Assembly: GCA_029262005.1 (NCBI GenBank)
Contig: JAJDAG010000012.1
Coordinates: forward strand, 3,161 to 67,160
Reading direction: 5' to 3'
DNA from: Candidatus Zhuqueibacterota bacterium
GTDB lineage: Bacteria > Zhuqueibacterota > Zhuqueibacteria > Oceanimicrobiales > Oceanimicrobiaceae
DNA length: 64,000 nt
Of the stretch, positions 12,378 to 42,013 are shown piece by piece; the first letter of the stretch is position 1; the number at the start of each line of letters is the position of its first letter. The position numbers and the translations under genes were made by a program. The notes beneath the pieces are model-generated. The model ran no database searches. It was not told the origin of the DNA and saw nothing but the letters and a program-made list of their open reading frames with translations.

Positions 12378-12390
12378 GAGAAATAATAAA

Positions 12391-15300: not shown

Positions 15301-15546
15301 TTGAGCCTGTGCGATCCCGACTTCAGAAGGCCGAAAGTGGGCAATATCTCAGATATTTCGGGGGATGTGCTCGTCGCTCCAAGTGTCATGCAAAAAGTGC
15401 AGGTGGAATTGCAAGGCGTGTGGAAACTGGATGGAAGCTACGCCAGCGCCCGTATGGTGCAGGCTTCCGGAAACGGCAGTGCAAGCGTCATCGAGTTCGA
15501 TTGTATTGACGCCAAAACCATCGAAGTGAAGTTGGTAAAGGAATAA
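12391..15546 (+). CDS. Second PL8-family-like lyase paralog (no T9SS tail, signal peptide only)
   Basis: start moved to the ATG at 12391 (MLKRKVTNVVMFSCMIFSMFSALNAFSQG signal peptide) because the upstream extension overlaps the ROK gene; IKPDYTGYHHRGVYSAAYAPMAFH gives the same H-x3-VY-x2-AY catalytic spacing; paralogous blocks ILPAYAYMAL / AAAFMRLW shared with the 7246 gene. Confidence 0.7.
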   Translation: MLKRKVTNVVMFSCMIFSMFSALNAFSQGKDTFKNCESFEMQIIPDAWQVAGGSSLELSTRHFKHGKRSLLWQWQAGAMLTATKPQGLQKATAAIGGGDTGRDENEPKYISKNSKQGGFKAWIYNETPVKDFVTFRFGSAADLQQNMPRYSFDFHLNFKGWRAVWVHFEQDARNPNYTGDSPVAVMDIIPPQSVKEGALFFDLIEFVDYMSWKRSADYQFPKKSVHADAGKWGKTYIYSQLNPPEKAKDAISDAEKEAFRTIEKRYTKWVLGDNIDLNNESIKIRYDALTKFIHKGIKAYERLNIQIKDGAITGLPLFSSRSPHKPKIGKTVLAPVFLPLALDYLINGNAQSKEKVMTLFDYVHDQGWADGSGMGTLNHQGNRVSGYMHAVMLLRDELRKVGKLEREMAAMAWFTDFGQIYVENEVGDEISADNLRTKFMYRLLVVLCMEDSPEKVVKMRYLNRWMNRALAIMPGFLDTIKPDYTGYHHRGVYSAAYAPMAFHLSSAVTYLVHGTEFAVPQEGMNNLKNALLTIRTHANKYDVPAGICGRFPENLSVLNRILPAYAYMALSSDPIDSELAAAFMRLWKPSSKRLREGLFRRAASNIEYYDTIGAIQIMQELAAKNIAAEKAPVGHWYKPYAGLTIHRRGNWMVSAKGWSQYIWDYESSGTENKFGRYLSYGAIQIYSGKGSIASGYNLKKGWDWNRWPGATTIHLPLKDLNHKGRISATYKEGRHRNFSDETFMGGVTLGQRNGIFAMKLHDTAYNPSFRARKSAFFFDDQVVCLGSGIENNDAEHATETMIFQTYLTAPENPQWVNDEEPTTQFPFEIKFADSETVWLMDPVGNGYVVPQAHNLQVSRAQQNSIHHKGKKKTVGDYATAWFAHGTQPAGTGYEYAILVKSTPQKVKAYAAAPEYKTLQKDNNAHIVRHEKKRTTGYVIFEEKETITHGAIRRASAPVLLMVKDAKNGMTLSLCDPDFRRPKVGNISDISGDVLVAPSVMQKVQVELQGVWKLDGSYASARMVQASGNGSASVIEFDCIDAKTIEVKLVKE

Positions 15547-20765: not shown

Positions 20766-21596
20766 ATGGATAGAAAATGTTTTGCGGATGAAATTCGCTA
20801 CCAAAGGATGAGCACGCAGGAGCTGCGAGAATCGTTTTTGGTCGATAAGCTGTTTCAGCCGAACGTGATCGACCTTTGTTATACGGACGCTGATCGCGCG
20901 ATTGTTGGCTCTGCCGTTCCCGGTGCGGAGAGTTTGCGCCTTGCCACTGCCAAATACATGGCCTCGGATTATTTTGCTGAACGTCGGGAAATCGGCGTCA
21001 TCAATATCGGCCAAACCGGTTCAATTACGGTCGATGGCGAGAAATACAATTTGGACCACCGCGACGGCCTTTATATTGGCCGCGGCAACAAGGAGATTCT
21101 TTTTAGCAGCGAAAACGCGGCTGCTCCGGCTCGATTTTACATTTTGAGTTATCCTGCTCACACTGAATTCCCCACCACACATATCAAAGCTTCGACCATC
21201 GATCCGGTCCAGATCGGGGTGAATGAGGAAGCCAACGCGCGCGCCATTTATAAATACATCCATCTCGAAGGCGTGCGAAGCTGCCAGCTTGTCATGGGTC
21301 TTACTGAATTGCAAAAGGGCAGCATCTGGAACACGATGCCGGCACACACGCATGATCGGAGAACTGAAATTTATATGTATTTCGACTTGGGGAAAGATGA
21401 TTTGGCTTTCCATTTCATGGGTATGCCAGATGAAACACGACATATTGTGATCAGAAATCAACAGGCGGTTTTATCGCCGGGTTGGTCCATACACTGCGGC
21501 GCCGGAACCAGCAACTACACATTTATCTGGGGCATGGGCGGGGAAAACCAGGATTATGGCGATATGGATATGGTTGGAATGAAGCAATTGCTGTGA
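20766..21596 (+). CDS. kduI: 4-deoxy-L-threo-5-hexosulose-uronate ketol-isomerase
   Basis: near full-length similarity to E. coli KduI: GLYIGRGNKEILFSS, LTELQKGSIWNTMPAHTHDRRTEIYMYF, TRHIVIRNQQAVLSPGWSIHCGAGTSNYTFIWGMGGENQ. Confidence 0.9.
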   Translation: MDRKCFADEIRYQRMSTQELRESFLVDKLFQPNVIDLCYTDADRAIVGSAVPGAESLRLATAKYMASDYFAERREIGVINIGQTGSITVDGEKYNLDHRDGLYIGRGNKEILFSSENAAAPARFYILSYPAHTEFPTTHIKASTIDPVQIGVNEEANARAIYKYIHLEGVRSCQLVMGLTELQKGSIWNTMPAHTHDRRTEIYMYFDLGKDDLAFHFMGMPDETRHIVIRNQQAVLSPGWSIHCGAGTSNYTFIWGMGGENQDYGDMDMVGMKQLL

Positions 21597-21622
21597 CATA
21601 AAACGGAAGGAGATATAAAAAA

Positions 21623-22783
21623 ATGCTTGGCAGGAAGCGACTTTACATTTTTCTATTCACAGCGCTGTTTTTTTCTCAGTGTAAAAGTAACCATGATAGG
21701 CTTTTGATCACGGCTGCGAACGATTTGAATATCGAGCGTAAAAGCGAAACGATTGAGCTGCGATGGCAACACATTATCGCGAAAATACCGACGCTCAACC
21801 CCGGGTCCATTGAACTGACCGAGCAGGCTTCGGGTGCAAAACTCATCTCGCAGACCATTGATTATGATCAGGACGGGTCTGTGGATGCCTTGCTCTTCCA
21901 GGCTGATTTCGCGCCGAAAGCAGTCAAAACATTTGTGCTGCAGGCCACAAAAGAAGCCGCTCTCGTGGAAACGGCGTCAAAAACATACGCCAAGTTTGTG
22001 CCGACCCGATTCGATGATTTCGCCTGGGAAAACGACCGCATTGCCTTTCGCATGTACGGCCCGGCGCTGCAAGCAAAAGGTGAGATCAACAGCGGTGTCG
22101 ATGTTTGGGTGAAAAGCGTGCCCAATTTGGTGCTCGATAAATGGTACGCCCCCGATTATGGCTCCTATCACGAAGACAAGGGTGAAGGACTTGATCATTA
22201 TAAAGTCGGCCCCAGCCGAGGCTGCGGCGGTCTGGCTATTTGGGCAGATGAAAAAATGATCCCTTCCAAAAATTTCATTGAATGGAAGATCATTGCCAAT
22301 GGCCCGATTCGTACGGTTTTCGAATTGACTTATGCACCCTGGGAGGTTGCCGGTGACAAAATCTCCGAAATCAAACGCATCACCCTCGATGCCGGTCAGA
22401 ATCTGAATCGATTCGAAAGCACGTTCAAGAGTGCGCAGAACCGCGAGACGCTGCCCATTGCAATCGGCATTGTAAAGCGCGACAAGCCGGGCGATGTTTC
22501 CATGGATACAAAAAACGGTGTGTTGCGATACTGGCAGCCTGCGCATGAAAAGCATGGTCATACCGGCTGCGGCGTTGTGATTGCTCCTGCAAAAGTAAAT
22601 GATATGAAAGAACTTTCCGACCATTTTGTGGTCAGCACTGAGGCGAAAACCGCAAGTTCTTTGACCTATTATGCCGGTGCCGGGTGGAGCAAAAATGCTG
22701 ACTTCCCAACGCTGGCTGCCTGGGATAATTATTTAGCGCAATTTTCCGCCGGGTTGGCTTCACCGCTGCGGGTTGAGTTTTAA
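21623..22783 (+). CDS. Lipoprotein of the DUF4861-like type that sits between kduI and kduD in many uronate loci
   Basis: signal + Cys (FFSQC); position between kduI and kduD; no catalytic motif recognised. Confidence 0.45.
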   Translation: MLGRKRLYIFLFTALFFSQCKSNHDRLLITAANDLNIERKSETIELRWQHIIAKIPTLNPGSIELTEQASGAKLISQTIDYDQDGSVDALLFQADFAPKAVKTFVLQATKEAALVETASKTYAKFVPTRFDDFAWENDRIAFRMYGPALQAKGEINSGVDVWVKSVPNLVLDKWYAPDYGSYHEDKGEGLDHYKVGPSRGCGGLAIWADEKMIPSKNFIEWKIIANGPIRTVFELTYAPWEVAGDKISEIKRITLDAGQNLNRFESTFKSAQNRETLPIAIGIVKRDKPGDVSMDTKNGVLRYWQPAHEKHGHTGCGVVIAPAKVNDMKELSDHFVVSTEAKTASSLTYYAGAGWSKNADFPTLAAWDNYLAQFSAGLASPLRVEF

Positions 22784-22805
22784 AAAGATAAGGGTGGATT
22801 GAAAT

Positions 22806-23567
22806 ATGATATTAGAACAGTTTAGACTGGATGATAAAATTGCCATCGTCACCGGCGCTAACAGGGGCATCGGACAGGCCATGGCGATTGGGCTGGCCGA
22901 AGCCGGGGCAGATGTTACACTTGTCAGCAGAAATCCGGCCGATGCCACGCAGCAAACCATTGAAAAGCTCGGGCGAAAAGCAATTGTCATTTGCGCTGAT
23001 CTCGCATCACCAGGCAGCATCGAGACTATTGTCAATTCCACGATAAAAAAGTTCGGCAGAGTTGATATCCTCGTTAACAACGCCGGTATTATTCGCCGGG
23101 CGCCCTTCACGGAATTTTCTGAAAAAGACTGGGATGACGTTATCAATGTGAATCAAAGATCGCTTTTCCTGTTAAGTCAGGCAGTCGCAAAAGAATTCAT
23201 CAAACAAAGTGATGGCGGCAAGATAATCAATATCGCTTCAATGCTTTCTTTTCAAGGGGGTGTTTTTGTGCCATCCTATACCGCTTCGAAAAGCGCGGTG
23301 ATGGGATTGACGCGTTTGATGGCCAACGAATTAGCGCCGCATAATATCAATGTAAATGCCATTGCTCCGGGCTACATCGCGACCGACAACACCGCCCCTT
23401 TACGACAAGATGCAGCACGGAACAAAGCGATTCTCGAACGAATTCCGGCCGGGCGCTGGGGCCAGCCTGAAGACTTGAAAGGCATCGTCGTGTTTTTGGC
23501 ATGCGCTGCTTCGTCGTATATGCACGGTTATACGGTGGCAGTAGATGGCGGATGGCTGGCCAGGTAA
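22806..23567 (+). CDS. kduD: 2-dehydro-3-deoxy-D-gluconate 5-dehydrogenase (SDR)
   Basis: near-collinear with E. coli KduD: KIAIVTGANRGIGQ, DILVNNAGIIRR, FSEKDWDDVINVN, GGKIINIASMLSFQGG, VPSYTASKSAVMGLTRLMANE, NAIAPGYIATDNT, RIPAGRWG, GYTVAVDGGWLAR. Confidence 0.9.
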   Translation: MILEQFRLDDKIAIVTGANRGIGQAMAIGLAEAGADVTLVSRNPADATQQTIEKLGRKAIVICADLASPGSIETIVNSTIKKFGRVDILVNNAGIIRRAPFTEFSEKDWDDVINVNQRSLFLLSQAVAKEFIKQSDGGKIINIASMLSFQGGVFVPSYTASKSAVMGLTRLMANELAPHNINVNAIAPGYIATDNTAPLRQDAARNKAILERIPAGRWGQPEDLKGIVVFLACAASSYMHGYTVAVDGGWLAR

Positions 23568-23661
23568 TTATTTTAGACGATTGCTTCCAGGGTTTGCTAT
23601 CCTTCGATGCTTTAGCTTGATCGATTCACAAATCGACAATTTGCGACCATAAAATATGAGT

Positions 23662-23774
23662 CGGGTTGTCACTCAGGAGGCGTCTTTGTAATAAAGTAAG
23701 CTGCTGTGAATCAATAGGATTCCTCCTGATTGACAAGGATGTTGTGAATTGTTCAGGTTAGAAAAAAGAATGAG
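23662..23774. promoter_or_regulatory. Conserved ~110-nt intergenic element, copy 1 (15-bp inverted repeat TTGTCACTCAGGAGG / CCTCCTGATTGACAA with 56-nt arm-to-arm offset, then GGATGTTGTGAATTGTTCAGGTTAGA...AATGAG), 34 nt upstream of the TonB-dependent receptor start
   Basis: near-identical architecture and flanks recur at 33940-34052; spacer core CTGCTGT conserved. Confidence 0.5.
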
Positions 23775-23807
23775 ATTTATTAATTTTACCGGATTATGGA
23801 GGGTTAA

Positions 23808-26720
23808 ATGAGACAGAGAACGCAAATCAGTTTTTTGTGCTTTATCATACTTCTTGGCCTCAGCTTGTCAACTCTGACTGTTAACGCTGCTGTCAGTGGA
23901 AAGATAGCCGGCCAGGTGACTGATGCAAACACAGGGGAATCGCTGCCCGGGGCAAATGTTATGATAATCGGCACAAGTCTTGGGACTGCAACTGATCCTG
24001 AAGGAAGATACTTTCTGCCGAGAGTCCCGCCAGGTCAATATACACTAAAAATCAGTTATATCGGCTATCAAGAGATAGAACTACCGGTAACGGTTTATGC
24101 TGATCAAACCTTAACCCAGAACGGACAACTGTCCTTCCAGGTTGTCGAAGGGGAAAGCATTTTTATCACAGCCCAGGCGGAAGGGCAAATGGAAGCGATT
24201 AACCAGCAACTCTCATCAACCAGCATTAAAAATATCGTTGCTTCCGATCGCATTCAGGAAATTCCAGATGCCAACGCCGCTGAATCCGTGGGCAGGTTAC
24301 CAGGGGTTTCCATACTGCGCAGTAATGGTGAGGGCAACAAGGTTGTTGTTCGCGGGCTTTCACCTCAGTACAACTCGGTAACGGTTAACGGCGTCCGCAT
24401 GGCCTCCTCCGGCAATGATCGGAGTGTGGATATGTCCATGATTTCATCTAATCTGCTGTCCGGTATTGAGGTTCAAAAATCGCTTACGCCGGATCGGGAT
24501 GCCGATGCCATCGGTGGTATTGTAGATTTCAAACTGAAAGAAGCGCCAAACGGCTTTAATACGGATCTTTTGTTGCAAGGAGGTTACAACGGCCAGCAAT
24601 CAGAAACGGATAATTACAAAATGGCTGCTTCGTTCAGTAACCGGTTCTGGAACGATAAGTTCGGTGTTATCGTGCAAGCGAATACCGAGCGATTCAATCG
24701 CAGCTCGGATAATTTGAGCGGTAGTTATCGCATTGAAAAAGAAGATTTGGAAACCAACACCGCCGATATTCTGCTCAGTTCCATCACCCTGACCGATCAC
24801 CTGGAGTCGAGAAAACGCACCGGCGCCAGCCTTTTTCTGGATTATAAATTACCCCAGGGCAAGGTTGCTTTTCATAACTTCTATTCCTTGATGGACCGGG
24901 AAATTACGGATTATAAGGAAACGCTGAATATAAATGAAGTCCAACACAATTACCAGCCCACGCAATCGAATAGGAAGACCACCACGTTAACCAATGCGCT
25001 TTCTATGGAGAGCGTCTTGTTTGGTTCGAAAATCGATGCAAGTCTTGCTCATTCCTTCGCCTCCTCAAAAATACCGTGGCAGCATTCATGGACTTTCCAG
25101 GAGCCGGGTGGTTTTGCCAGCGGTTTTGATCCGGAGGCCATTTTGCCGGTTGATGTGCAGGCCTTCGCGAAAAACGATAGCGTCGCTGCCTTTTTGAATA
25201 ACATGAGCCGGGTCAACAGTTTTACCGAAGAGAGGGAATATACAGCCCAGGCCAATATCGAGATGCCTTTCGCGTTGACAGACAATATAAGCGGTGCCTT
25301 CAAGTTTGGCGGTAAATATCGTTACAAAACCCGAGAACACGACATCAATGAAAGGACAGTGCTCTTTAGAGTTGAGGAAGCCTTGCGCGCTGAGGTATAT
25401 GGAGCCTATCCCTTCATCGGAGATAACGTTGTTGGAGAGAAAGTGCCAATCTGGCTTTTGCAAGATCGCAATTATGATCCGGGTGAGTTTCTCGGCGGCA
25501 ACTATGATTTAGGCTATACCGCTGATTTGGATATAATGGAGCACATTACCGAACTGGGCCGATCTTACGAAAAAAATGACGCGACTGAGTCATTGCAAGA
25601 TGATTATAGTGGTAACGAAGCTTTGGGCGCCGGTTATGCCATGGCTGAAATCAACCTGGGATCGAAACTCCTGTTTATCCCCGGCGTCCGCTATGAGCGC
25701 ATCCGGACGGAATATCAGGCATGGAAGGCCAGTGATAATACCGACCCCGGCAACCCTGAAGATACCGATGCCGTGGATACAACCACTGTGCGAATCAACA
25801 GTCATTTTTTCCCGATGTTCCAGTTGCGCTACAAGGTCACAGATTGGTTTGATGTTCGCCTGGCGCGAACAAAGTCCCTGACGCGCCCTTCTTACCGGGA
25901 CATTATGCCCAAGCAGTTTTTGGACACACGCGACAATAAATTCTTTTTCAATAACCCTCAACTTGAACCTTCCATTTCGGTGAATTACGACCTCTACCTG
26001 TCGTTTTACGGCAATCGTATCGGTCTCTTTACAGTTGGCGGATTTTACAAAGAAATCGATGGGCTTATTTGGCAACGGCAATGGTCCTTGTTGCGCAATT
26101 CGTCTGACACCGAGGCATTTTTGGCTGAAAACGGACTGAGCAATACCATCGTTGGCTACGAAGTGACAACAGACATCAACAATCGATTCAAGGCATCTTT
26201 CAAAGGGGTAGAATTTGACTGGCAGACGAACTTTTGGTATTTGCCAAATCTGTTCCGCAATCTCGTGCTGAATATAAACTACACTCATATTTTTTCCGAG
26301 ACCACTTACCCGCGTGTGCTGTTGCGGACCCAATACTTAAACGAAGCACCCTGGGTTTTGGAAGAAAACCTGACGGCAGATCGCGATGGCCAGATGCTGC
26401 ATCAACCGAATAACGTTGTAAATATTTCGCTTGGCTATGATATTAGTGGCTTCTCTGCGCGTCTCTCGATGTTGTACCAGGGAGAAATCCTCTCCAGGTT
26501 GGGTGCTCGCCCCGAGGTCGATGGTTTTACCGAAGACTATGTTCGTTGGGATCTCTCGGTGAAACAAAATCTGCCTTTTAGCGGGCTCCAGTTATATTTA
26601 AACCTGAATAACATATCTGATCGTCCGGATATATCTCGTCGACCGATTGAGACTTTCGTCACCAGTGAGCAATATTATGGCAGGACAGGTGAAATTGGAA
26701 TTCGATACGTCATCAAGTAA
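23808..26720 (+). CDS. TonB-dependent outer-membrane receptor with N-terminal carboxypeptidase-regulatory-like domain (SusC-like architecture, no SusD partner)
   Basis: signal peptide; GKIAGQVTDANTGESLPGANVMIIGTSLGTATDPEGRYFL...ISYIGYQEIE (CarbopepD_reg); plug region DRIQEIPDANAAESVGRLPGVSI...VVRGL; long beta-barrel; GGAGGG RBS. Confidence 0.8.
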   Translation: MRQRTQISFLCFIILLGLSLSTLTVNAAVSGKIAGQVTDANTGESLPGANVMIIGTSLGTATDPEGRYFLPRVPPGQYTLKISYIGYQEIELPVTVYADQTLTQNGQLSFQVVEGESIFITAQAEGQMEAINQQLSSTSIKNIVASDRIQEIPDANAAESVGRLPGVSILRSNGEGNKVVVRGLSPQYNSVTVNGVRMASSGNDRSVDMSMISSNLLSGIEVQKSLTPDRDADAIGGIVDFKLKEAPNGFNTDLLLQGGYNGQQSETDNYKMAASFSNRFWNDKFGVIVQANTERFNRSSDNLSGSYRIEKEDLETNTADILLSSITLTDHLESRKRTGASLFLDYKLPQGKVAFHNFYSLMDREITDYKETLNINEVQHNYQPTQSNRKTTTLTNALSMESVLFGSKIDASLAHSFASSKIPWQHSWTFQEPGGFASGFDPEAILPVDVQAFAKNDSVAAFLNNMSRVNSFTEEREYTAQANIEMPFALTDNISGAFKFGGKYRYKTREHDINERTVLFRVEEALRAEVYGAYPFIGDNVVGEKVPIWLLQDRNYDPGEFLGGNYDLGYTADLDIMEHITELGRSYEKNDATESLQDDYSGNEALGAGYAMAEINLGSKLLFIPGVRYERIRTEYQAWKASDNTDPGNPEDTDAVDTTTVRINSHFFPMFQLRYKVTDWFDVRLARTKSLTRPSYRDIMPKQFLDTRDNKFFFNNPQLEPSISVNYDLYLSFYGNRIGLFTVGGFYKEIDGLIWQRQWSLLRNSSDTEAFLAENGLSNTIVGYEVTTDINNRFKASFKGVEFDWQTNFWYLPNLFRNLVLNINYTHIFSETTYPRVLLRTQYLNEAPWVLEENLTADRDGQMLHQPNNVVNISLGYDISGFSARLSMLYQGEILSRLGARPEVDGFTEDYVRWDLSVKQNLPFSGLQLYLNLNNISDRPDISRRPIETFVTSEQYYGRTGEIGIRYVIK

Positions 26721-26879
26721 AGAAGAGGACTAAAAGAATCCTGAGCAGACACATTCAGATAAACTAATTTCCACGTGGCTTTTAATCAACACGCAGTTCT
26801 TCAGAAAGGAGGTTTAAAGAATTTTTTTTAGTAAGTGAATAAATAATTAGAACCAATTATTTAAAGGAGGGTTTGCAAA

Positions 26880-28514
26880 ATGCATTCACATCAAAAAAGT
26901 AGTTTTATTTTTGCCATGATACTGTGCTTAAGCATGGTTATGCCTGTAGTTGTGCTGGCTCAACCCAATACCGTTGTTGTCGAGCCCGGGGTAGGCACTC
27001 TGAATGATGCTGTGGCGGCCAATCAGAATTCCGATACTATATTGCAACTGCGGCGTGGCGGCCGTTATACTTTAAACGGCAGACTGAAAAATGACGGTTT
27101 TACGCTTCACATCGAAGGCGAAGCTGATGATCCGAACAATCCATTGCCGCCGGCAACCATTTGGCCGATAACCAAATCGGACGGCACTTCTGACAACCCG
27201 CTCATCGAAATGAAGGGGGATGGCATATTCAAGAATATCGCTTTCCTGGGAATGAATTCCCAACTAGTCCGGATGGCAAATGCTATAAAAGTTCAAGCTG
27301 ACAGCGTTCGTCTTGTTGTTGATAACTGCCTCTTTGAGCATTTCAGGAACAGGGCTATCCGGGCCAAATCAAACGGGATCGATGTTTTTTTAACCAACAA
27401 TATTTTCAGGAATATTCTGGACAAGACGCGCAACTGGTATAATGCGGGCGCGCTCTCGCTCGATCACCTTCCCGCCGATACAGTCTGGTATGAAAACAAC
27501 ACCTTTGTCAACGTCCAGAGCTTTGTCTTCCAGGTCAGGTTTAATGTTGTCAACCATGTCCATTGGAATCACAACACCGTGGTCAATAATTCAAAGAATA
27601 CTTTTCATTTCGAGCAATGGACCGATGGCGTCGTTACCAACAATCTTTTTATCAACACTCAATTCTCCGGCGATTCCGATTCGGAAAGATCCGGCCAGGA
27701 TTTGGATGGTTTGGCCAGAGGCTCATGGATGATTGATACATTGGATGTTGCATTGGGTATTCCCGAGGCATCAAGAAAAGTTCTGCTGGGCAACAATAAC
27801 TGGTATCTGGATCCAAAATTCATCGATTTCTACGCCACCAACGATACGGTGCAGGCGCAACCTTTCTTTAATGAAACTGCGGCAGCCTTTTTCGCCGATA
27901 ATGTGAACTACCCCGATGTAATCGAGCAAAACAATACCCAGATCGATCCCCAGTTCACCACGCCACCGGATAATATCGATGCGATTATTGCCTGGTCAAC
28001 GGAACGGCGCATGAATCCGGTACCGAATGAAGTCACTGAATGGGCATGGGACCCGGATGGTGATCCATTAACAATTGGTTGGCCGCTCTCTGAGGACTTG
28101 AGCTACGCGAGCAGCAGCCCTCTCTATACCGCCGGTAGTGATGGGTTCCCTCTTGGTGATCTAAACTGGTTCCCGGATAAAAAAGCAGAGTTTGTGACGA
28201 GCGTTGAAACTGAAACACCTTCATCTATTCCGAGTGCTTTCGAGTTGTCACAAAACTATCCAAATCCCTTCAATCCTGAAACGTCCATCCAATACGCTCT
28301 GAAGAAAAACGGCCACGTGACATTGACCGTGTTCAACGTGCTTGGTCAGAAGTTCGCCACCCTTGTCGATCAAAAACAACAGGCCGGCCAGCACAGCGTG
28401 CACTGGGATGGCCGGGACCAAAGAGGTGAGCTTGCACCAAGCGGTGTATATTTCTACAAACTTGCACTGGATGGCTTTCAAAGTCAGACACGTAAGATGG
28501 TTTTGATGAAGTAG
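26880..28514 (+). CDS. Secreted right-handed parallel beta-helix protein (polysaccharide lyase/hydrolase-like) with T9SS C-terminal sorting domain
   Basis: repeats NNIFRNIL..., NNLFINTQF..., NCLFEHFRNRAIRAKSNG; C-terminal NYPNPFNPETSIQYAL...GVYFYKL...RKMVLMK. Confidence 0.65.
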   Translation: MHSHQKSSFIFAMILCLSMVMPVVVLAQPNTVVVEPGVGTLNDAVAANQNSDTILQLRRGGRYTLNGRLKNDGFTLHIEGEADDPNNPLPPATIWPITKSDGTSDNPLIEMKGDGIFKNIAFLGMNSQLVRMANAIKVQADSVRLVVDNCLFEHFRNRAIRAKSNGIDVFLTNNIFRNILDKTRNWYNAGALSLDHLPADTVWYENNTFVNVQSFVFQVRFNVVNHVHWNHNTVVNNSKNTFHFEQWTDGVVTNNLFINTQFSGDSDSERSGQDLDGLARGSWMIDTLDVALGIPEASRKVLLGNNNWYLDPKFIDFYATNDTVQAQPFFNETAAAFFADNVNYPDVIEQNNTQIDPQFTTPPDNIDAIIAWSTERRMNPVPNEVTEWAWDPDGDPLTIGWPLSEDLSYASSSPLYTAGSDGFPLGDLNWFPDKKAEFVTSVETETPSSIPSAFELSQNYPNPFNPETSIQYALKKNGHVTLTVFNVLGQKFATLVDQKQQAGQHSVHWDGRDQRGELAPSGVYFYKLALDGFQSQTRKMVLMK

Positions 28515-28540
28515 GCTGGTTACAACGTTTGCAGAATTCT

Positions 28541-28576
28541 AACCCCTTCCAGGGTTTCAAGCCCTGGAGGGGTTGA
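28541..28576. repeat. GC-rich palindromic intergenic repeat (family 1), 27 nt after the beta-helix gene stop
   Basis: AACCCCTTCCAGGGTTTCAAGCCCTGGAGGGGTTGA; 11-bp stem with one bulged T, loop TTTCAA. Confidence 0.5.
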
Positions 28577-28834
28577 CTTAATGTTATTGCAATCAGGTTA
28601 GAAATTGTTTGTCCCGGCCTTTCAGGAGCAGGGGAAATCCGTGGCGAATGCTTATCTTGGTGCGTGCTCGATAACACCATAACCCCCACAGATCAACATA
28701 GAACTAAAATGGGGGCTTGCAATACCATTTTCAAGGGCAGGGTGGATGTGTACTGTAATTGTTTACTCTATTCAGGATTTGTACATTGTTTTTGAGTAGC
28801 CAGGTGATTTTAATTGATGTCGGATTGAGATAAG

Positions 28835-30139
28835 ATGCCTTCAGCATTTCACATAATGGCCAAACCTATTGGCCCGGTTTGCAATATTGACTGCACCTAC
28901 TGTTTTTACCTGGAAAAGGAGAAACTGTATCCGCAAAAATCGGACTTCCGTATGTCTGATGCAGTGCTGGAGTCATTCATCCGTCAGAAAATCGCCAATC
29001 ATTCGGTTCCAAAAGTTACATTTGCCTGGCAGGGTGGCGAGCCGACCCTTTTGGGCGTTGATTTCTTTCGCAAGGTCGTCGCGCTGCAAAAGAAATATGC
29101 CGACGGCAAAGAAATTGAAAACGGGTTTCAAACCAATGGCGTTTTGCTCGATGATGAGTGGTGCACGTTTTTCAAGGAGAACAATTTTCTCGTCGGATTG
29201 TCTTTGGATGGTCCGGAAGAGAGCCACAACCGTTTTCGGATCAATAAAGGTGGCAAAGGCACATTTCAGCAAGTCATGCGTGGATTGGAGTTTCTTAAAA
29301 AGAATGGTGTGGAGTTTAATACTCTGACAGTGTTGCAACGGGATAACTCCTGTCATCCGCTGGAGATTTATCGTTTCCTGAAAGAAGTGGGCAGCGGTTT
29401 CATGCAATTTATTCCAATTGTGGAGCGAGTGGCTCAAGATTCTCCCGGGGACGGGCTTTCCCTGGTCGCACCAAATTTTACGGCCGCATCCCAGGTGACG
29501 GATTGGTCGGTGGAGCCGGTACAATATGGCAAATTTCTCTGCGCTATTTTCGATGAATGGGTTCGCAAGGATGTCGGCGAACAATTCGTGCAGATGTTTG
29601 ATGTTGCACTGTCGGCCTGGCTGGGCTTAGAGCCCCCGCTTTGTGTTTTTCGCAGGACCTGCGGTGACGCCCTTGCCATTGAACATAATGGCGACGTTTA
29701 TTCATGTGACCATTTTGTCTATCCGGAAAATAAACTGGGTAATATTATCGACAGCCCGCTCGAAGCACTGATTTCATCGGACAAGCAAGTCAGGTTTGGC
29801 CGGGACAAATTGGATCAGCTTCCGAAGTATTGCGGGGACTGTGACGTTAGATTTGTTTGTAACGGTGAATGCCCCAAACATCGTTTTCTAAAAACACCGG
29901 ATGGAGAAGAAGGACTGAACTATTTGTGCGCCGGATACAAACAGTTTTTTAAACACATCGATCCATTTATGAAATTTATGGCAAATGAATTACGAAACCA
30001 GCGCCCACCGGCCAATGTGATGGCCTGGGCAGAAGAAAAGGACAAAGGTTTTCCTTCTCACAACATAGGGCGCAATGAGCCCTGTCCATGCGGCAGCGGC
30101 ATAAAGATCAAGAACTGTTGTGCTTCCAATAAAAAATAG
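28835..30139 (+). CDS. Anaerobic sulfatase-maturating enzyme (radical SAM/SPASM) with extra C-terminal SEC-C-type Cys motif
   Basis: HIMAKPIGPVCNIDCTYCFY (CxxxCxxC); SPASM Cys cluster CGDCDVRFVCNGECPKH; C-terminus EPCPCGSGIKIKNCC. Confidence 0.85.
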   Translation: MPSAFHIMAKPIGPVCNIDCTYCFYLEKEKLYPQKSDFRMSDAVLESFIRQKIANHSVPKVTFAWQGGEPTLLGVDFFRKVVALQKKYADGKEIENGFQTNGVLLDDEWCTFFKENNFLVGLSLDGPEESHNRFRINKGGKGTFQQVMRGLEFLKKNGVEFNTLTVLQRDNSCHPLEIYRFLKEVGSGFMQFIPIVERVAQDSPGDGLSLVAPNFTAASQVTDWSVEPVQYGKFLCAIFDEWVRKDVGEQFVQMFDVALSAWLGLEPPLCVFRRTCGDALAIEHNGDVYSCDHFVYPENKLGNIIDSPLEALISSDKQVRFGRDKLDQLPKYCGDCDVRFVCNGECPKHRFLKTPDGEEGLNYLCAGYKQFFKHIDPFMKFMANELRNQRPPANVMAWAEEKDKGFPSHNIGRNEPCPCGSGIKIKNCCASNKK

Positions 30140-30171
30140 AATTAGATCTAAAAGAAAAAGCGAAACAAGTT

Positions 30172-31161
30172 ATGAACTTTAATCACGGAAAGATCCACAG
30201 ATGTTTATTTCTCCTGATGGCCTTTCTTCTTATCGCCGGTTGCAATAGCGAAAGAAAAGTGCGGGTGATCAAGCTCGCCCATGTTCTGGATACGCAGCAT
30301 CCGGTGCACAAAGCCATGGTTTACATGGCCGACCGGGTGGTTGAAAAATCAAATGGGACCATGCGCGTTGACATTTATCCCGGCGGTCAACTCGGAGGGG
30401 AGCGCGACCTGATAGAGTTGCTGCAAATCGGTAGCCTGGCAATGACCAAAGTGTCCGCCGCTCCACTGGAAGCCTTTGTTCCGGAAATGAAATTATTTGG
30501 TATTCCCTATGTGTTTCGTGATGATGAACAGCGCTGGAAAGTACTGAACGGGGACATCGGGAAAAAACTTCTGCTTGCGGGCGAACCGTTTTTCCTGCGT
30601 GGTATGTGCTATTACGACGCCGGCAGCCGCAGTTTCTACACCAAAGAAATGCCCGTAAACACGCCGGTCGATTTAGAGGGTTTAAAAATCAGGGTGATGA
30701 AGAGTATAACAGCCGTGAAAATGGTGCAGGCTTTGGGGGGCGCCGCCACACCTATCCCATGGGGAGAGCTTTATACCTCGCTGCAACAAGGCGTTGTTGA
30801 TGGCGCTGAGAACAATCTCCCCACTTTCTACCTCTCGCGCCACTATGAAGTGTGCAAATATTTCAGTCTCGACGAACACACCGCCATTCCCGACATTTTG
30901 CTCATGAGCACAGTTGTCTGGAAAAGTCTCTCCAAACAGCAACAAATATGGTTGCAGGAGGCTGTGGACGAGTCGGTCGGGTACCAAAACAAATTGTGGC
31001 AGGAAGCCAGCGAAGAAGCGTTAAACGCGGTGCAAAAAGCCGGTGTTGAGGTCATCTATCCCGATAAGAGTCCGTTTCACGAATCGGTGAAAGAAATGCA
31101 TGACTCTTTTCGTGGCACGTCGATCCACCGCCTGCTCAATGAAATCAAAGATATCCAATAA
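30172..31161 (+). CDS. dctP: TRAP transporter solute-binding protein, DctP family (lipoprotein)
   Basis: IAGCNS lipobox; DctP-family blocks (VIKLAHVLDTQHPVHKA...YPGGQLGGERDLIELLQIGSLAMT). Confidence 0.8.
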   Translation: MNFNHGKIHRCLFLLMAFLLIAGCNSERKVRVIKLAHVLDTQHPVHKAMVYMADRVVEKSNGTMRVDIYPGGQLGGERDLIELLQIGSLAMTKVSAAPLEAFVPEMKLFGIPYVFRDDEQRWKVLNGDIGKKLLLAGEPFFLRGMCYYDAGSRSFYTKEMPVNTPVDLEGLKIRVMKSITAVKMVQALGGAATPIPWGELYTSLQQGVVDGAENNLPTFYLSRHYEVCKYFSLDEHTAIPDILLMSTVVWKSLSKQQQIWLQEAVDESVGYQNKLWQEASEEALNAVQKAGVEVIYPDKSPFHESVKEMHDSFRGTSIHRLLNEIKDIQ

Positions 31162-31171
31162 GCTCGTGGGA

Positions 31172-31690
31172 ATGAAAATGCAAAAATTAACCTATACAAT
31201 AACCCGAACACTGGAGATCATGCTGATCGTCCTCATGTCAGCCATCGTCATCGATGTCACCTGGCAGATTTTCACTCGTTTCATTTTACGCGATCCCAGC
31301 TCGTTTACCGAAGAGCTGGCGGGTTTCTTGCTGGTCTGGATTGGCCTGTTGGGCGCCAGCTATGCTCTGCACACACGGGCGCACCTGGGAATTGATATTT
31401 TAGTCGCCAAACTCGACGGCTTGAAAAAGCAGTTTGCAGAGGTTCTGGTCTATTCTGTGGTGCTGCTCTTTGCTCTGTTCATTCTTTTAATCGGCGGCTT
31501 GAAACTGGTAAAGCTCACTTATGTTCTCAACCAAATTTCACCGGCGATAGGCATTCCGATGTGGTATATCTACCTGGCCCTGCCACTCACAGGCATGCTG
31601 ATGATGTTTTATTCGCTGGTATTTATCGTTGATGCTTTGAAAAAATCATCTCCCTCCGATGGAAGGCCACACGTGAGTCCGGTTAATTAA
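31172..31690 (+). CDS. dctQ: TRAP transporter small permease, DctQ family
   Basis: 4-TM small protein between dctP and dctM; start placed at the first ATG after the dctP stop (31159-31161). Confidence 0.7.
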   Translation: MKMQKLTYTITRTLEIMLIVLMSAIVIDVTWQIFTRFILRDPSSFTEELAGFLLVWIGLLGASYALHTRAHLGIDILVAKLDGLKKQFAEVLVYSVVLLFALFILLIGGLKLVKLTYVLNQISPAIGIPMWYIYLALPLTGMLMMFYSLVFIVDALKKSSPSDGRPHVSPVN

Positions 31691-31708
31691 TCAAAAGGAA
31701 GGAAATGA

Positions 31709-33004
31709 GTGGAAACGTCTATTTTTATACTGATCATTAGTTTTGTTGTACTGTTAGCGCTCAATGTTCCCATCGCCATCAGTATCGGTGTGTCAACGGT
31801 ATTGACCATGCTGTTTACCATTGCCCCGGGCCCGGCCATTACGACGGTTGCGCAGCAGATGACCACGGGCATCAACAGTTTTACTTTGCTGGCCATCCCG
31901 TTTTTCATCCTCTCCGGATTGCTTATGGGCCGAGGAGGCATTGCCCGTCGTTTAATCGATTTTGCCAAAGTCGTTGTCGGAATGTTCCCCGGTGGCCTGG
32001 CTTACGTCAATGTCTTGGCCTGTATGTTTTTTGGCGCAATATCAGGTTCGGCAGTTGCCGCGACCTCCGCGATCGGCGGATTTATGATCCCTTCGATGAA
32101 TAAAGAAGGCTACGATGACGAGTTTAGCACGGCGGTTACCGTCACGGCTTCCACCACGGGATTGTTGATACCGCCGAGCAATATTCTCATTGTCTATTCG
32201 CTGGCAAGCGGCGGCGTTTCCATTGCCGCATTGTTCATTGCCGGTTACTTGCCCGGCTTGCTGGTTGGCATGGGTTTGATCGTTGTCGCAGCGATTACTT
32301 CCATTGTGAGAGGCTACCCGGTGGGTGCGAAAGCCGGTTTGCGCGAGTCGATGCTCAAGTTTTTGGCTGCCATTCCCAGCCTTTTGCTCATCATCATTGT
32401 TATTGGTGGCATCATTGCGGGCATTTTTACGGCCACGGAAGCCAGCGCGGTTGCGGTGCTCTATTCATTGTTCCTGGCTGTCGGCGTTTATCGTGAAGTC
32501 AAAATAAAGGAACTACCGGCGATTCTACTTAAGACAGTCGAAACCACGGCCATTGTGATGCTGCTCATCGGTACTTCAAAAGCGATGTCCTGGATTTTGT
32601 CTTATGAAAATATTCCACAAAATATCAGCACTGCGCTGGTTGGCTTGACCGACAATACCATTGTCATCCTGTTGCTCATCAATCTCATTTTGCTTGTTGT
32701 CGGCACTTTCATGGACATGACGCCCGCCGTCCTGATTTTCACGCCAATCCTGTTGCCGGTTGTGATGAAACTGGGTATGACGCCACTGCATTTTGGTATT
32801 ATGATGGTACTTAATCTTTCTATCGGCTTGTGTACGCCGCCTGTGGGCAGCGTACTATTTGTTGGCTGCGGAATCGGCAAAACGTCCATCGCAAAACTGA
32901 TCAGGCCTCTGGTTCCGCTTTATATCGCCATGCTGATTGCCCTCATGCTGGTGACTTACATTCCGGCAATCAGTCTTTGGCTGCCGGAACTTTTTGGTTA
33001 TTAA
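31709..33004 (+). CDS. dctM: TRAP transporter large permease, DctM family
   Basis: polytopic 431 aa; typical DctM N-terminus METSIFILIISFVVLLALNVPIAISIG and GxxSGS motifs. Confidence 0.85.
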   Translation: METSIFILIISFVVLLALNVPIAISIGVSTVLTMLFTIAPGPAITTVAQQMTTGINSFTLLAIPFFILSGLLMGRGGIARRLIDFAKVVVGMFPGGLAYVNVLACMFFGAISGSAVAATSAIGGFMIPSMNKEGYDDEFSTAVTVTASTTGLLIPPSNILIVYSLASGGVSIAALFIAGYLPGLLVGMGLIVVAAITSIVRGYPVGAKAGLRESMLKFLAAIPSLLLIIIVIGGIIAGIFTATEASAVAVLYSLFLAVGVYREVKIKELPAILLKTVETTAIVMLLIGTSKAMSWILSYENIPQNISTALVGLTDNTIVILLLINLILLVVGTFMDMTPAVLIFTPILLPVVMKLGMTPLHFGIMMVLNLSIGLCTPPVGSVLFVGCGIGKTSIAKLIRPLVPLYIAMLIALMLVTYIPAISLWLPELFGY

Positions 33005-33009
33005 TTAAC

Positions 33010-33040
33010 GAAGACTACTATTTTTGGTCTTCATTTTTGT
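33010..33040 (+). terminator. Rho-independent terminator after dctM
   Basis: GAAGAC-(11 nt)-GTCTTC stem followed by ATTTTTGT. Confidence 0.5.
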
Positions 33041-33077
33041 AAGAATCTAAGCGGTTTATTACTTGGGGTGTTGAAAG

Positions 33078-33884
33078 ATGAGAATAGTCATTCATAAAGA
33101 CAAGTACAGCCTGAGTAAGTGGGTTGCCTGTTACATTGCGCATAAAATAAATAGTCATAATGCTACTTCGCAAAAGCCATTTGTCCTTGGCCTTCCCACC
33201 GGCTCATCTCCATTGGAAACATACAAAGAGCTCATTCGCCTTCATAAAGATGGAAAAGTATCATTTAAAAATGTGATAACATTCAATATGGATGAATACG
33301 TTGGCCTGCCTGAAGATCATGATCAGAGTTACCACTATTTTATGTGGCATAATTTCTTTAATCATATCGATATTCCCTCCGAAAATGTAAATATTTTGGA
33401 TGGTATGGCGCCGGACCTTGAGAAAGAGTGCAAACAGTATGAAAAGAAAATTAGTCAGACCGGCGGCATTGATCTTTTTCTCGGAGGTATTGGCCCGGAC
33501 GGGCATATTGCCTTTAACGAACCTGGTTCCTCCCTGTCATCACGAACCAGAGTGAAAACCCTGACCTATGATACGAGAATGGCTAACTCTCGATTTTTTA
33601 AAGATATTGAAGAGGTGCCGAGTACCGCACTTACTGTTGGGGTAGGTACGGTTTTGGATACCCGCGAAATAGTAATCATTATCAGCGGATACAGTAAAGC
33701 CCGGGCACTGCAAAAGGTGGTTGAAGAAGGTGTTAACCACATGTGGACAGTTTCAGTAATGCAATTACATCAGAATTGCATCATAGCCTGTGATGATGAA
33801 TCGACAATGGAATTAAAAGTGGGTACAGTTAATTATTTCAAGAATATTGAAATGGAAAATATTAATAAATTATTAGACTTATAA
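33078..33884 (+). CDS. nagB: Glucosamine-6-phosphate deaminase
   Basis: near-collinear with E. coli NagB: [91 protein letters not shown]. Confidence 0.9.
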
Positions 33885-33939
33885 CAATATCAGCCTGAGT
33901 AATTCATAAATTTACAATTTAAGGTCAAACGTCAAGCAC

Positions 33940-34052
33940 CGGCTTGTCACTCAGGAGGAGTCCTGTTAGCTTGGCAAACTGCTGTTAGTTAACAAGATTC
34001 CTCCTGAATGACAAGGGTGCTGTGAATTATTCAGGTTAGATGATAAATGAGG
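33940..34052. promoter_or_regulatory. Conserved ~110-nt intergenic element, copy 2 (TTGTCACTCAGGAGG / CCTCCTGAATGACAA, identical 56-nt offset, then GGGTGCTGTGAATTATTCAGGTTAGA...AATGAG), 93 nt upstream of eda
   Basis: direct comparison with 23662-23774; same mismatch position in the stem in both copies. Confidence 0.5.
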
Positions 34053-40649: not shown

Positions 40650-40711
40650 GTCATTTGCCGGCAACCCGGTTTCTGATAGCTGTTGCACCATTTCAAGAAA
40701 AGGAATTCGCA

Positions 40712-42013
40712 ATGGAGAATTTGTTCATCAAGGTTGATGAGAAGGAATTTGGCCCTGTCTCACTCAAAGAACTTAAGGATTTAGCAAAGGAAGGTAGCTT
40801 CAGTAGAGAGGATTATATCTGGAGTGAAGATTTGGATGAGTGGGTGCCGGCAGAACACACCGTTGAACTCAAAGATGTGTTCACTGTTAACACCAACGGC
40901 CATTTCAAAAAACGCATTTATGCTGTTGCAAGCGGAAAAGGAGGTGTTGGTAAAACGGTGATTTCTTCTTCAATCGGCGTTGGACTGGCTTCCATGGGGC
41001 AGGAAGTCATTATGGTTGATGCCGATTTTGGTGGTGCAAACATGCACACCTGCATGGGAATTTTGGAGCCTGAACTCACATTTTTCGATTTCTATACCTT
41101 ACAAAAAGAAACATTGAGTGATATTGTCCTGGACACCCCGGTTGAAAACTTGCGTATGATCAGCGGCGCTTGCGGTACACTCGGGCTGGCGAATCCCAAA
41201 TACTTTCAGAAACAGCGGTTTATCCGAGAGCTCAAGAAGTTGCAGGCAGATAGCATTCTCATAGATCTGGGCGCAGGTTCCGGATTTCATACCGTTGATC
41301 TTTTTCTGCTCGCCGATGAAAAAATCCTCGTTATGACGCCGGAGCCCACTTCTGTGTTCGAAGCCTTTGGCTTTATCAAAATATGTCTGCTGCGTGATTT
41401 GAACCGGCGTCTTAAAAAGTATCCAGAGGCTCTTGCGGTTTTGGCAAAAGACGGCATAAATAAGCCCAATAATATTCAGTTGACCATTGGCGATTTGATG
41501 ACCGAAATAGAAAAAATCGACGAAGAGGCGTTGAATATTTTTAAAGAAACGCTGGCCGGCTTTTCGCCAAAGCTCATATTGAATATGGTAAAGGCGCGCG
41601 ATGAAATTAAGGAAGGGCAGGCGATTCAAGCTGCTGCGCTAGATTTGCTTTGCATCAACGTGGAGCTGCTTGGCTACATTTCTTTCGATTTTCAAGTGAA
41701 GGCAGCGGTTAAAGCAATGAAGCCATTTTTGCTTTTTGACCCAAAAGCCAAAGCCTCGCAGGATCTGTCCGCCTTGATCAGGGTAAATCTGCTTGGCAAA
41801 AAAGGCGTGCGTGAGATTCTTGAACGACGGCGGTGGCGAAAATTGGTGGAAAACTACTCCCGTGAATATCCGGAACAAAATATTTTAGAAAATGGGACTA
41901 TCTGCTCGGTGCGCTGTTTCTATTGGGGTGATTGTGAATATGAGGATGGCGGCAGCCATTGCCCTGTGCGGCACCTTGAACCCGTTTTAAAGGAACGACT
42001 CGTGTCCTCTTAA
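40712..42013 (+). CDS. Fusion of an N-terminal GYF-like DUF4339 domain and a MinD/ParA-type P-loop ATPase, with a C-terminal Cys/His-rich tail (paralog 1)
   Basis: N-terminus FIKVDEKEFGPVSLKELKDLAKEGSFSREDYIWSEDLDEWVPAEHTVEL fits the DUF4339 W...GP.S...L..L...G.I...W...W..A pattern; deviant Walker A VASGKGGVGKT; DADFGGANMHTCMG; tail CSVRCFYWGDCEYEDGGSHCPVRH. Confidence 0.6.
   Translation: MENLFIKVDEKEFGPVSLKELKDLAKEGSFSREDYIWSEDLDEWVPAEHTVELKDVFTVNTNGHFKKRIYAVASGKGGVGKTVISSSIGVGLASMGQEVIMVDADFGGANMHTCMGILEPELTFFDFYTLQKETLSDIVLDTPVENLRMISGACGTLGLANPKYFQKQRFIRELKKLQADSILIDLGAGSGFHTVDLFLLADEKILVMTPEPTSVFEAFGFIKICLLRDLNRRLKKYPEALAVLAKDGINKPNNIQLTIGDLMTEIEKIDEEALNIFKETLAGFSPKLILNMVKARDEIKEGQAIQAAALDLLCINVELLGYISFDFQVKAAVKAMKPFLLFDPKAKASQDLSALIRVNLLGKKGVREILERRRWRKLVENYSREYPEQNILENGTICSVRCFYWGDCEYEDGGSHCPVRHLEPVLKERLVSS

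Follow-up and report, generated by a model that had tools for sequence, protein, structure and literature searches.

Two look-alike non-coding stretches lie in a long same-strand cluster of glycosaminoglycan/uronate utilisation genes, with spacers of roughly 100 nt, and the question they raise is whether they belong to the pathway or to a repeat. An earlier note had taken them for a shared cis-regulatory module or a structured 5' leader RNA of uronate catabolism, remarking also on a likeness to a MITE-like mobile unit. Their resemblance is real: 23662-23762 and 33940-34040 align gap-free over 101 nt at 79% identity and form the longest direct repeat of the 64-kb stretch of DNA analysed here, called the window. 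Our analysis identifies the element as a MITE scattered between unrelated genes, and not a control element for the sugar-acid pathway; very probably a single kind of non-autonomous DNA transposon, 142 nt long, has inserted at both places.

The boundaries of the element were set by alignment of 13 full-length family members, drawn from three MAGs, one metagenome and the window, together with target-site duplications (Table 1). Similarity between the two copies begins about 50 nt further to the left than had been reported, and each unit is closed by 16-nt terminal inverted repeats, CCTGATTAATTCACAA and TTGTGAATTATTCAGG, which are found in the 13 copies. This outer inverted repeat (CYTGA..ATTCAYAA / YTGTGAATT.TTCAGG) surrounds the inner 15-bp one; the suspicion of a mobile unit was right as to a MITE, while the ends are the outer repeats and not the 15-bp arms. 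With its 142 nt the element stays under the limit of about 600 bp for MITEs, and no conserved ORF is present in it, an 11-codon ORF occurring in copy 1 only.

Much of the inner anatomy described before holds. The left arm, TTGTCACTCAGGAGG, does not differ between the copies (23666-23680, 33944-33958), the right arms (23722-23736, 34000-34014) follow at an equal offset of 56 nt with one mismatch each at the same stem position, CTGCTGT is kept in both loops, and TGTGAATTRTTCAGGTTAGA comes after both copies (2 pattern matches vs 0.02 expected). The mismatch, present in both copies as claimed, marks a sub-family; in most family members the palindrome is perfect at that place. The TTAGA on the right does not belong to the element, being the 4-bp target duplication plus flank, and the trailing AATGAG lies outside the element, 1 nt out of register between the copies and missing in other family members. 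What had been listed as a third partial copy, TCAGGTTAGA, really at 28593-28602, is a match of only 10-12 nt, of which about one is expected by chance in the window by our estimate, and the family profile finds no copy there at E<=1.

Table 1. Positions of the two element copies and their parts in the window
Feature	Position	Strand	Remark
Left target-site duplication, copy 1, TTAG	23612..23615	.	same 4-mer flanks both sides of the element
MITE copy 1, 142 nt	23616..23757	+	alignment of 13 members and duplications
Left terminal inverted repeat, copy 1, CTTGATCGATTCACAA	23616..23631	+	
Central palindromic core, copy 1	23666..23736	.	15-bp arms, 41-nt interior
Right terminal inverted repeat, copy 1, TTGTGAATTGTTCAGG	23742..23757	+	
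Right target-site duplication, copy 1, TTAG	23758..23761	.	
Left target-site duplication, copy 2, TCAG	33890..33893	.	3 of 4 bases as in the right one
MITE copy 2, 142 nt	33894..34035	+	alignment of 13 members and duplications
Left terminal inverted repeat, copy 2, CCTGAGTAATTCATAA	33894..33909	+	
Central palindromic core, copy 2	33944..34014	.	
Right terminal inverted repeat, copy 2, CTGTGAATTATTCAGG	34020..34035	+	
Right target-site duplication, copy 2, TTAG	34036..34039	.	

Evidence of insertion comes from the flanks. Identical 4-mers border 9 of the 13 full-length copies (permutation mean 1.9, P<5e-5), and three further copies match at three of the four bases. The 4-mers vary among copies (TTAG, CTAA, GTAA, TGAA, ATAA, TTAA and ATAG), with NTAR as the duplication consensus; YTAR, the published duplication motif of IS5 (PMC10359306), is fitted by 8 of the 13 left-flank 4-mers. 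A duplication of TA alone was considered for the window type and dropped, since the variable bases beside TA match across each copy, which makes the duplication 4 bp long. The 4-bp NTAR duplications are a putative IS5-type insertion signature. The imperfect duplication of copy 2 (TCAG/TTAG) counts against the MITE reading. At another locus, L113, a Y1-transposase ORF is interrupted by a sibling MITE that shares the core and has CCT… ends: an intact homologue aligns with its residues 1-55 to one flank and with its residues 55-190 to the other, and deleting the element plus one TTAA/TTTAA restores the reading frame. For the sibling element this restored frame is, at the level of sequence, proof of insertion.

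The two window insertions are situated between kduD (stop 23567) and the gene of a TonB-dependent receptor (start 23808) and between a nagB-like gene (stop 33884) and eda (start 34145). For neither did an empty site come to light, a point against the MITE reading: exact look-ups gave nothing for Eda or the TonB receptor, and for KduD one 3.2-kb contig that likewise carries the element. The closest homologue of the TonB receptor is merely 51% identical, so it offers no orthologous locus for comparison. Near leuS, no copies occur in 112 kb of relatives (72-76% LeuRS identity), where one weak single-arm profile match was seen; the distribution of the element is patchy.

Besides the two copies known from the 64 kb of the source genome, the family was met at 17 loci in 5 MAGs in a first scan and at 100 metagenome loci in a second. 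Both scans together, covering 874 kb, contain 121 exact and 31 diverged cores, about 150 in total, the diverged ones being unascertained additional copies within those 874 kb. Per MAG, 4-7 copies were seen, at least 75 contigs of one metagenome have a copy, and decayed copies are present; the hosts are several uncultured sediment bacteria. Elsewhere the element stands next to genes of a peptidase, a protein kinase, glycosyltransferases, pyruvate:ferredoxin oxidoreductase and UbiA, and several copies lie between the 3' ends of convergent genes. The 115 classifiable copies fall into tandem (81), convergent (17) and divergent (17) spacers in proportions equal to those of the background (439, 93 and 90, respectively), and only 4 copies are placed inside heuristically called ORFs. 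Copies are scattered without association to promoters, beside unrelated genes and in background-like contexts, which is the outcome that the earlier note had named as refuting its proposal, and the proposed role as a module or leader of uronate catabolism falls. An origin from phages was also considered and set aside, as viral contigs gave no exact match to the core. In the literature, an exact search with the arm strings retrieved a single, unrelated PCR primer.

This genome-wide distribution refutes a dedicated cis-regulatory module, that is, an operator or promoter through which a uronate/KDG-responsive regulator would co-regulate the two operon heads, and we hold such a module to be exceedingly improbable. 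Its attraction is that pathway genes follow both window copies, which share one orientation, and that the right end contains a repressor-operator-like palindrome, TGAAT.ATTCA; in addition, the cluster shows no recognisable HTH-type regulator. That palindrome, however, is the terminal repeat, and with the rest of the element it occurs next to unrelated genes as well as where convergent genes meet at their 3' ends, while divergent and 5' regions are not enriched, target-site duplications are present, and a consensus scan detects no sigma-70 promoter and no terminator within the copies. A sugar-acid operator of the KdgR/UxuR/ExuR type was rejected, the motif not being confined to regulon promoters. 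A structured RNA (5' leader, riboswitch or small RNA gene) with the hairpin as its functional unit is also very improbable. The predicted folds, at -44.9 and -58.0 kcal/mol, are far more stable than those of shuffled sequences (z -3.7 and -6.9), and the distant variants at L011, L102 and L103 retain arm complementarity despite a different inner-stem sequence. Against this, no Rfam family matches at the gathering threshold, and at E<=10 there are only generic hairpin matches to miRNA models far under their cut-offs. Compensatory changes, for which a covariance check had been proposed, do not support the fold in the family alignment: double changes occur at 3 of 34 predicted pairs, the RNAalifold covariation term is +0.31, and the common arm variants are one-sided and uncompensated (27 vs about 3, and 47 vs 3). 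G·U and C·A asymmetries do not single out a favoured strand, since they appear on opposite ones; the orientation to neighbouring genes varies, and the element is not tied to one gene family. Three further resemblances were considered and discarded: an integron attC site (the arms are conserved in sequence and the copies lie outside cassette arrays), a hammerhead (CUGAAUGA is incompatible with its core) and a terminator (the T-run stands before, not after, the inner hairpin).

Spread by a RAYT (Y1/HUH) transposase instead of a DDE transposase, as for REP/REPIN-type elements, is very improbable too. The core taken alone is REPIN-like, with two inverted 23-mers around a variable spacer of about 20 nt, an extragenic position and many copies, about 60% of which have neither outer repeats nor a detectable duplication, and a RAYT-type gene lies 70 nt from a core in L113. 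That gene, however, is frameshifted and broken by the element rather than serving it; no cognate RAYT was found for the core, and the intact RAYT homologues at L125-L127 are flanked by another palindrome, GTGGCACGYGCCTTTAGGCCGTGCC, the distinct repeat of that family. The core also lacks the GTAG-type 5' tetranucleotide of REP/REPIN, and the composite elements here carry DDE-type duplications, the 4-bp ones of the window type favouring DDE-type insertion. More room, while still unlikely, is left for a MITE that was co-opted to modulate expression of the cluster in the kduD-receptor and nagB-eda spacers, where by analogy it could serve as a partial terminator or as a hairpin that stabilises the mRNA or is cleaved by RNase III. 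As the copies sit in short same-strand spacers they are probably co-transcribed, their hairpins are very stable, Correia and ERIC elements are documented to act in this way (PMC10969869), and the gene-parallel orientation of both window copies leaves room for a local effect on expression. The insertions nevertheless occur at background frequency in every intergenic class, as neutral tolerance predicts, and no U-tract follows the hairpin in either copy.

The preferred reading remains a MITE, whose build is seen in the 16-nt terminal inverted repeats, the long palindromic interior and the non-coding sequence. A transposase from elsewhere in the genome would bind the terminal repeats and insert the element at a 4-bp NTAR site, duplicating that site in the manner known for IS5-type DDE transposases. 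The two copies would have arrived independently in two spacers of about 100 nt of the uronate gene cluster, and their nearness to pathway genes would reflect places where insertion is tolerated, not a pathway function. If co-transcribed with the cluster, each copy would fold into a very stable hairpin, which by analogy could alter mRNA processing or stability; any effect on the operons would then be a by-product, for instance of such a hairpin. Against this reading, the 874 kb yielded neither a parent autonomous IS nor a transposase with matching terminal repeats, every match to the ends being a short element, and no IS5-family DDE transposase with matching ends was seen in the loci examined. 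Between paired cores there is no transposase either; the genes between neighbouring cores in L050 and L078 are housekeeping ones.

Among the nearest published counterparts are IS5-derived MITEs, for example MITEPgRS/BrickBuilt of Porphyromonas gingivalis (PMC4596501), likewise small, non-coding and multi-copy elements with terminal inverted repeats, from the same FCB superphylum. The 4-bp duplication of the window element with its T-A core agrees with the IS5 motif YTAR, yet ATAG, GTAA and TGAA show that the first duplicated base is not limited to Y. Its terminal repeats differ from those listed for ISPg elements and, unlike in IS5-derived MITEs, the interior is a single long palindrome with a core common to other MITE families.

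This palindromic core of about 70 nt (TGTCATTCAGGAGGAATC…) is built of two conserved 23-mers, inverted to each other, with a variable spacer of about 20 nt between them (TGTCATTCAGGAGGAATCTTTTT-N~20-AAAAAGATTCCTCCTGAATGACA). At least seven MITE families, 133-165 nt long and with unrelated terminal repeats, have it exactly at their centre. The duplications of core-bearing families fall into classes of 4-5 bp, TA and 7-9 bp. Clean duplications of 7-9 bp are seen in sister families at L082 (GGTGGTTG), L084 (CGCTTAAG), L090 (CGTAGCTCG), L021 (ATTTCATT) and L027 (TTTCATG), while others (c1, c4) have TA at each end. Solo cores show no duplication above the shuffled-partner control, whether directly at the edge (k=2-5) or up to 60 nt away (k=6, 8). 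The core is present in KSB1-like MAGs and in one Saprospiraceae MAG, and decayed cores still keep their outermost 8 nt.

Across genomes the core is conserved more than the transposon ends, which counts against the MITE reading; in a typical MITE the order is the opposite, and an additional constraint is hinted at. That the core is an independent functional or mobile module, more than transposon filler, is a tentative and rather doubtful proposition. It is possible that it is a hairpin element targeting the centres of other palindromes, cargo captured by several transposons to their own benefit or that of the host, or the recognition site of a structure-specific enzyme. One core shared by transposon families of differing insertion chemistry is unusual and deserves specialist attention.

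PU units in BIMEs combine with other motifs in mosaic fashion, as the core does here, and like REP/REPIN/BIME of Proteobacteria the core lies outside genes and often stands alone, with no duplications. Correia (Neisseria), ERIC (Enterobacteriaceae) and RUP (pneumococcus) elements are also imperfect intergenic palindromes of 100-200 nt; RUP and ERIC carry TA at both ends, like the sister families c1 and c4. The window type duplicates 4 bp, in contrast to the TA of these elements, and no internal promoter-like site was detected in it, unlike in them; similarity in sequence is not expected, because the phylum differs. Correia/ERIC-type elements are often co-transcribed, forming long RNA hairpins, and affect neighbouring genes via promoters, IHF sites or RNase III/E cleavage (PMC10969869).

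In practice the two elements are best masked as copies of a transposon and not used as a uronate regulon motif, which removes a false lead; motif-based regulon reconstruction in these genomes would otherwise be contaminated by repeats. A first MITE superfamily with measurable insertion signatures is hereby documented in the poorly sampled KSB1-like branch of FCB, and a full-text literature search found no paper naming MITEs together with KSB1. Repeats of such type break up metagenome assemblies and can drive rearrangements, which the junction with L118 suggests: synteny with the window stops at 23760, inside the right 4-bp duplication of copy 1.

The two look-alike stretches of the window are insertions of a MITE that is of an ordinary kind and forms a new family. 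That they are real repeats, as the earlier note proposed, was confirmed by aligning 23662-23762 with 33940-34040, which gave 79% identity over 101 nt without gaps; no longer direct repeat is present in the window. The 15-mer TTGTCACTCAGGAGG occurs exactly in both, its reverse complement follows with one mismatch at the same 56-nt offset, and the conserved block reported downstream of the arms, TGTGAATTRTTCAGGTTAGA, was also recovered (2 matches vs 0.02 expected). The reported start, however, has to be moved, as similarity begins ~50 nt further upstream. Reverse-complementing this block (…CYTGA..ATTCAYAA) gives the downstream one (YTGTGAATT.TTCAGG), so an outer inverted repeat encloses the inner one, and the terminal ends of the 142-nt element are CCTGATTAATTCACAA. 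The stretch near 28594 that was supposed to be a third, partial copy matches over just 10-12 nt, gives no detection with the family profile at E<=1, and is treated as a chance match.

Coordinates of the elements, their duplications and other features (L-numbers are MAG or metagenome loci retrieved for comparison)
Feature	Locus	Position	Sequence or remark
Copy 1	window	23616-23757	kduD/receptor-gene spacer (240 nt)
Copy 1, target-site duplication	window	23612-23615 / 23758-23761	TTAG / TTAG
Copy 1, core	window	23666-23736	arms at 23666 and 23722-23736
Copy 2	window	33894-34035	nagB/eda spacer (260 nt)
Copy 2, target-site duplication	window	33890-33893 / 34036-34039	TCAG / TTAG
Copy 2, core	window	33944-34014	arms at 33944 and 34000-34014
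Cores elsewhere	L018-L117		e.g. L088 47-117, L090 61-130
8-9-bp duplications, other same-core families	L082, L084, L090		GGTGGTTG, CGCTTAAG, CGTAGCTCG
8-9-bp duplications, other same-core families	L106, L021, L043		7/8, ATTTCATT, AAATCATT
7-bp duplication, same-core family	L027		TTTCATG
Family c3 ends, other interior	L035	11030-11260	G+C-rich internal palindrome
Split RAYT-type gene	L113	958-1702	minus strand
Palindromes flanking RAYT genes	L125	~500-546, 1120-1150	GTGGCACGYGCCTTTAGGCCGTGCC
Palindromes flanking RAYT genes	L126	~200-247, 821-850	GTGGCACGYGCCTTTAGGCCGTGCC
Palindromes flanking RAYT genes	L127	~1950-2000, 2577-2610	GTGGCACGYGCCTTTAGGCCGTGCC
IS200-like Y1 gene	L058	148-651	minus strand; hairpin arrays in 1-1000
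Junction contig	L118	2260-3161	vs window 23613-23761
Polysaccharide utilisation cluster	window	1-35843	all genes on one strand
PL8 lyase genes	window	7246-10122, 12211-15546	paralogous
AACCCCTGGAAGGGTT-like hairpins	window	7194-7219, 28531-28574	3' of genes 5602-7167 (sulfatase) and 26880-28514 (T9SS protein)
GYF_2-ParA/MinD genes	window	40655-42013, 42123-43337	tandem
GYF_2-ParA/MinD gene	L119	1014-2321	relative, near leuS

Insertion is documented by the flanks. Thirteen full-length window-type copies were anchored on their terminal repeats, and the four bases outside each end were compared. Left and right 4-mers are the same in 9 of the 13, three of four bases agree in 3 further copies, and the motif varies from copy to copy (TTAG, CTAA, GTAA, TGAA, ATAA, TTAA, ATAG). 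When left flanks were permuted against the right flanks of other copies, the mean was 1.9 identities, and 9 was never reached in 20,000 permutations. These 4-mers are 4-bp target-site duplications with the consensus NTAR. For IS5 the published duplication motif is YTAR (PMC10359306), and Porphyromonas, also in the FCB group, has IS5-related MITEs (PMC4596501); judged from the duplication motif, an IS5-like DDE transposase would mobilise the element. A sibling family that shares the core but has CCTAAATTGAGCGAT ends shows matching flanks as well (TTAA, GTAA, AAAA). In L113 a member of it splits a RAYT-type Y1 transposase gene, which is also frameshifted; alignments to the intact homologue P0246 (190 aa) flank the insertion, with residues 1-55 upstream and, in another frame, residues 55-190 downstream. 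Once the element and one TTAA/TTTAA copy are taken out, …KDNFKLKLW… is restored, and L113 is a filled site with a reconstructable empty form.

The inner palindrome of ~70 nt is the most widely conserved part of the element. Its majority form is TGTCATTCAGGAGGAATCTTTTT, ~20 variable nucleotides and the exact reverse complement; TGTCATTCAGGAGGAATC also belongs to the core. The families that have this palindrome at their centre fall into three duplication classes (4-5 bp, TA and 7-9 bp), and their terminal repeats are unrelated; TA stands at both ends of 5/6 and 4/7 copies in two further same-core families. The outer inverted repeat is absent from ~60% of cores, including 41 of the 47 with unique flanks, and around solo cores there is no duplication, either directly at the edge or up to 60 nt away. 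Conservation in diverged copies stays at 93-100% for the outer eight bases and falls to 32-77% at central positions; distant variants from other metagenomes and a Saprospiraceae MAG still have complementary arms with a different inner-stem sequence. Family c3 terminal repeats enclosing another palindrome in L035 suggest exchangeable interiors and hint that core-less versions of the families exist.

The earlier note had read the pair as a shared cis-regulatory module or structured 5' leader RNA of uronate catabolism, mentioning a MITE in passing. The distribution of copies speaks for the MITE. A two-arm pattern scan of genomes found 17 loci in five MAGs, which, aligned with their flanks, have the architecture of the window copies; those from MAG JBHHXN01 hardly differ from one another across ~150 nt. 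Their neighbours are unconnected with uronate metabolism and encode an M1 peptidase, a Ser/Thr kinase with a GAF protein, a GH106 enzyme and PfkB, an acyltransferase, a deacetylase, a GT4 glycosyltransferase, pyruvate:ferredoxin oxidoreductase, UbiA, a subtilase and a C25 peptidase. Two copies lie between 3' ends, those of FtsX permease and TonB-receptor genes (L017) and of uxuA and a CBM35 protein gene (L015), and two others (L004, L009) are antisense to both neighbours; these positions exclude a promoter role. The metagenome scan added 100 loci, about three quarters from one metagenome, and 121 distinct exact and 31 diverged cores were collected in 874 kb. Among 115 copies with called neighbours, 81 are tandem, 17 convergent and 17 divergent, against 439, 93 and 90 for all adjacent gene pairs in the same DNA, and therefore promoter-bearing regions are not preferred; four copies lie inside heuristically called ORFs. 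Copies are thus scattered irrespective of gene or promoter, an outcome that the earlier note had named as refuting its reading, and the pair is no regulator of uronate catabolism. A sigma-70 consensus scan found no promoter inside either window copy.

A leader RNA might be argued from the very stable predicted folds of 150-nt windows (-44.9 and -58.0 kcal/mol; z -3.7 and -6.9), yet stability alone is not evidence of RNA function, because any palindrome is expected to fold stably. Rfam gave no match in the whole window at gathering thresholds, and at E<=10 the elements alone gave only generic hairpin matches to miRNA models, far below cut-offs. The stem gave no compensatory signal: in RNAalifold of the 13 copies the covariation term was +0.31, with any double change in only 3 of 34 pairs. 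At the two commonly variable stem positions of the 121 cores changes are one-sided (27 vs ~3 and 47 vs 3), as under independence. In the window type each strand is favoured by one G·U/C·A asymmetry, which leaves no preference between the two. RNA-type covariation is absent, and with uncompensated arm variants and no Rfam family the leader reading fails. The mismatch at the same stem position is indeed present in both copies, but it marks a sub-family, most cores being perfect palindromes there. By analogy with Correia and ERIC elements (PMC10969869), the MITE may still affect the mRNA of the cluster.

One explanation tested and rejected for the core was a REPIN mobilised by a RAYT transposase. 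The sole RAYT near a core is the L113 gene, disrupted by the core-carrying element, and the family to which this RAYT belongs carries on both sides, in L125-L127, its own, different palindrome, GTGGCACGYGCCTTTAGGCCGTGCC. Such flanking makes a classic REPtron, here in uncultured bacteria, and has nothing to do with the core of the MITEs. The Y1 gene of L058 sits within arrays of three other small hairpin repeats (CCGGAGGATGAATCCTCCGG, AGCGTCATAAATGACGCT and GACCCACGATTCATCGTGGG).

The MITE is patchily distributed: in relatives whose LeuRS is 72-76% identical, the 112 kb surrounding leuS contained no copy, only one weak single-arm match. The 3.2-kb contig L118 (Logan SRR15505514, another run), from a near-identical strain, is identical to window 21348-23680 and differs from copy 1 at 11 positions in the right 95 nt of the element. 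Similarity ends after 23760, within the right duplication and three bases beyond the element, and unrelated DNA follows. Its flanks are TTAG and TTAT, the latter where the window has TTAG. The junction may stem from recombination between two copies, which would give such non-matching flanks and a mosaic element, or be an assembly chimera at the repeat.

The window LeuRS is 67% identical to candidate division KSB1 proteins and 72-79% to other MAG proteins, and therefore the host belongs to the FCB group as an uncultured, KSB1-like bacterium. The cluster holding both copies encodes six sulfatases, two PL8 lyases, an MFS transporter, a ROK protein, DUF1961, two GH88 enzymes, KduI, DUF4861, KduD, a TonB-dependent receptor, a T9SS-tailed protein, anSME, a TRAP transporter, a NagB-like protein, Eda and KdgK. 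This 36-kb single-strand locus is of the glycosaminoglycan (chondroitin/hyaluronan-type) utilisation kind in a KSB1-like bacterium, with a TRAP transporter in place of a SusD partner for the receptor; the PL8 genes have 80%-identical DNA blocks in common. Short G+C-rich AACCCCTGGAAGGGTT-like hairpin repeats directly 3' of two stop codons either resemble terminators or make up one more family of small repeats. Beyond the cluster, tandem paralogues fuse an N-terminal GYF_2 domain to a ParA/MinD-type ATPase, an architecture also found near leuS in a relative.
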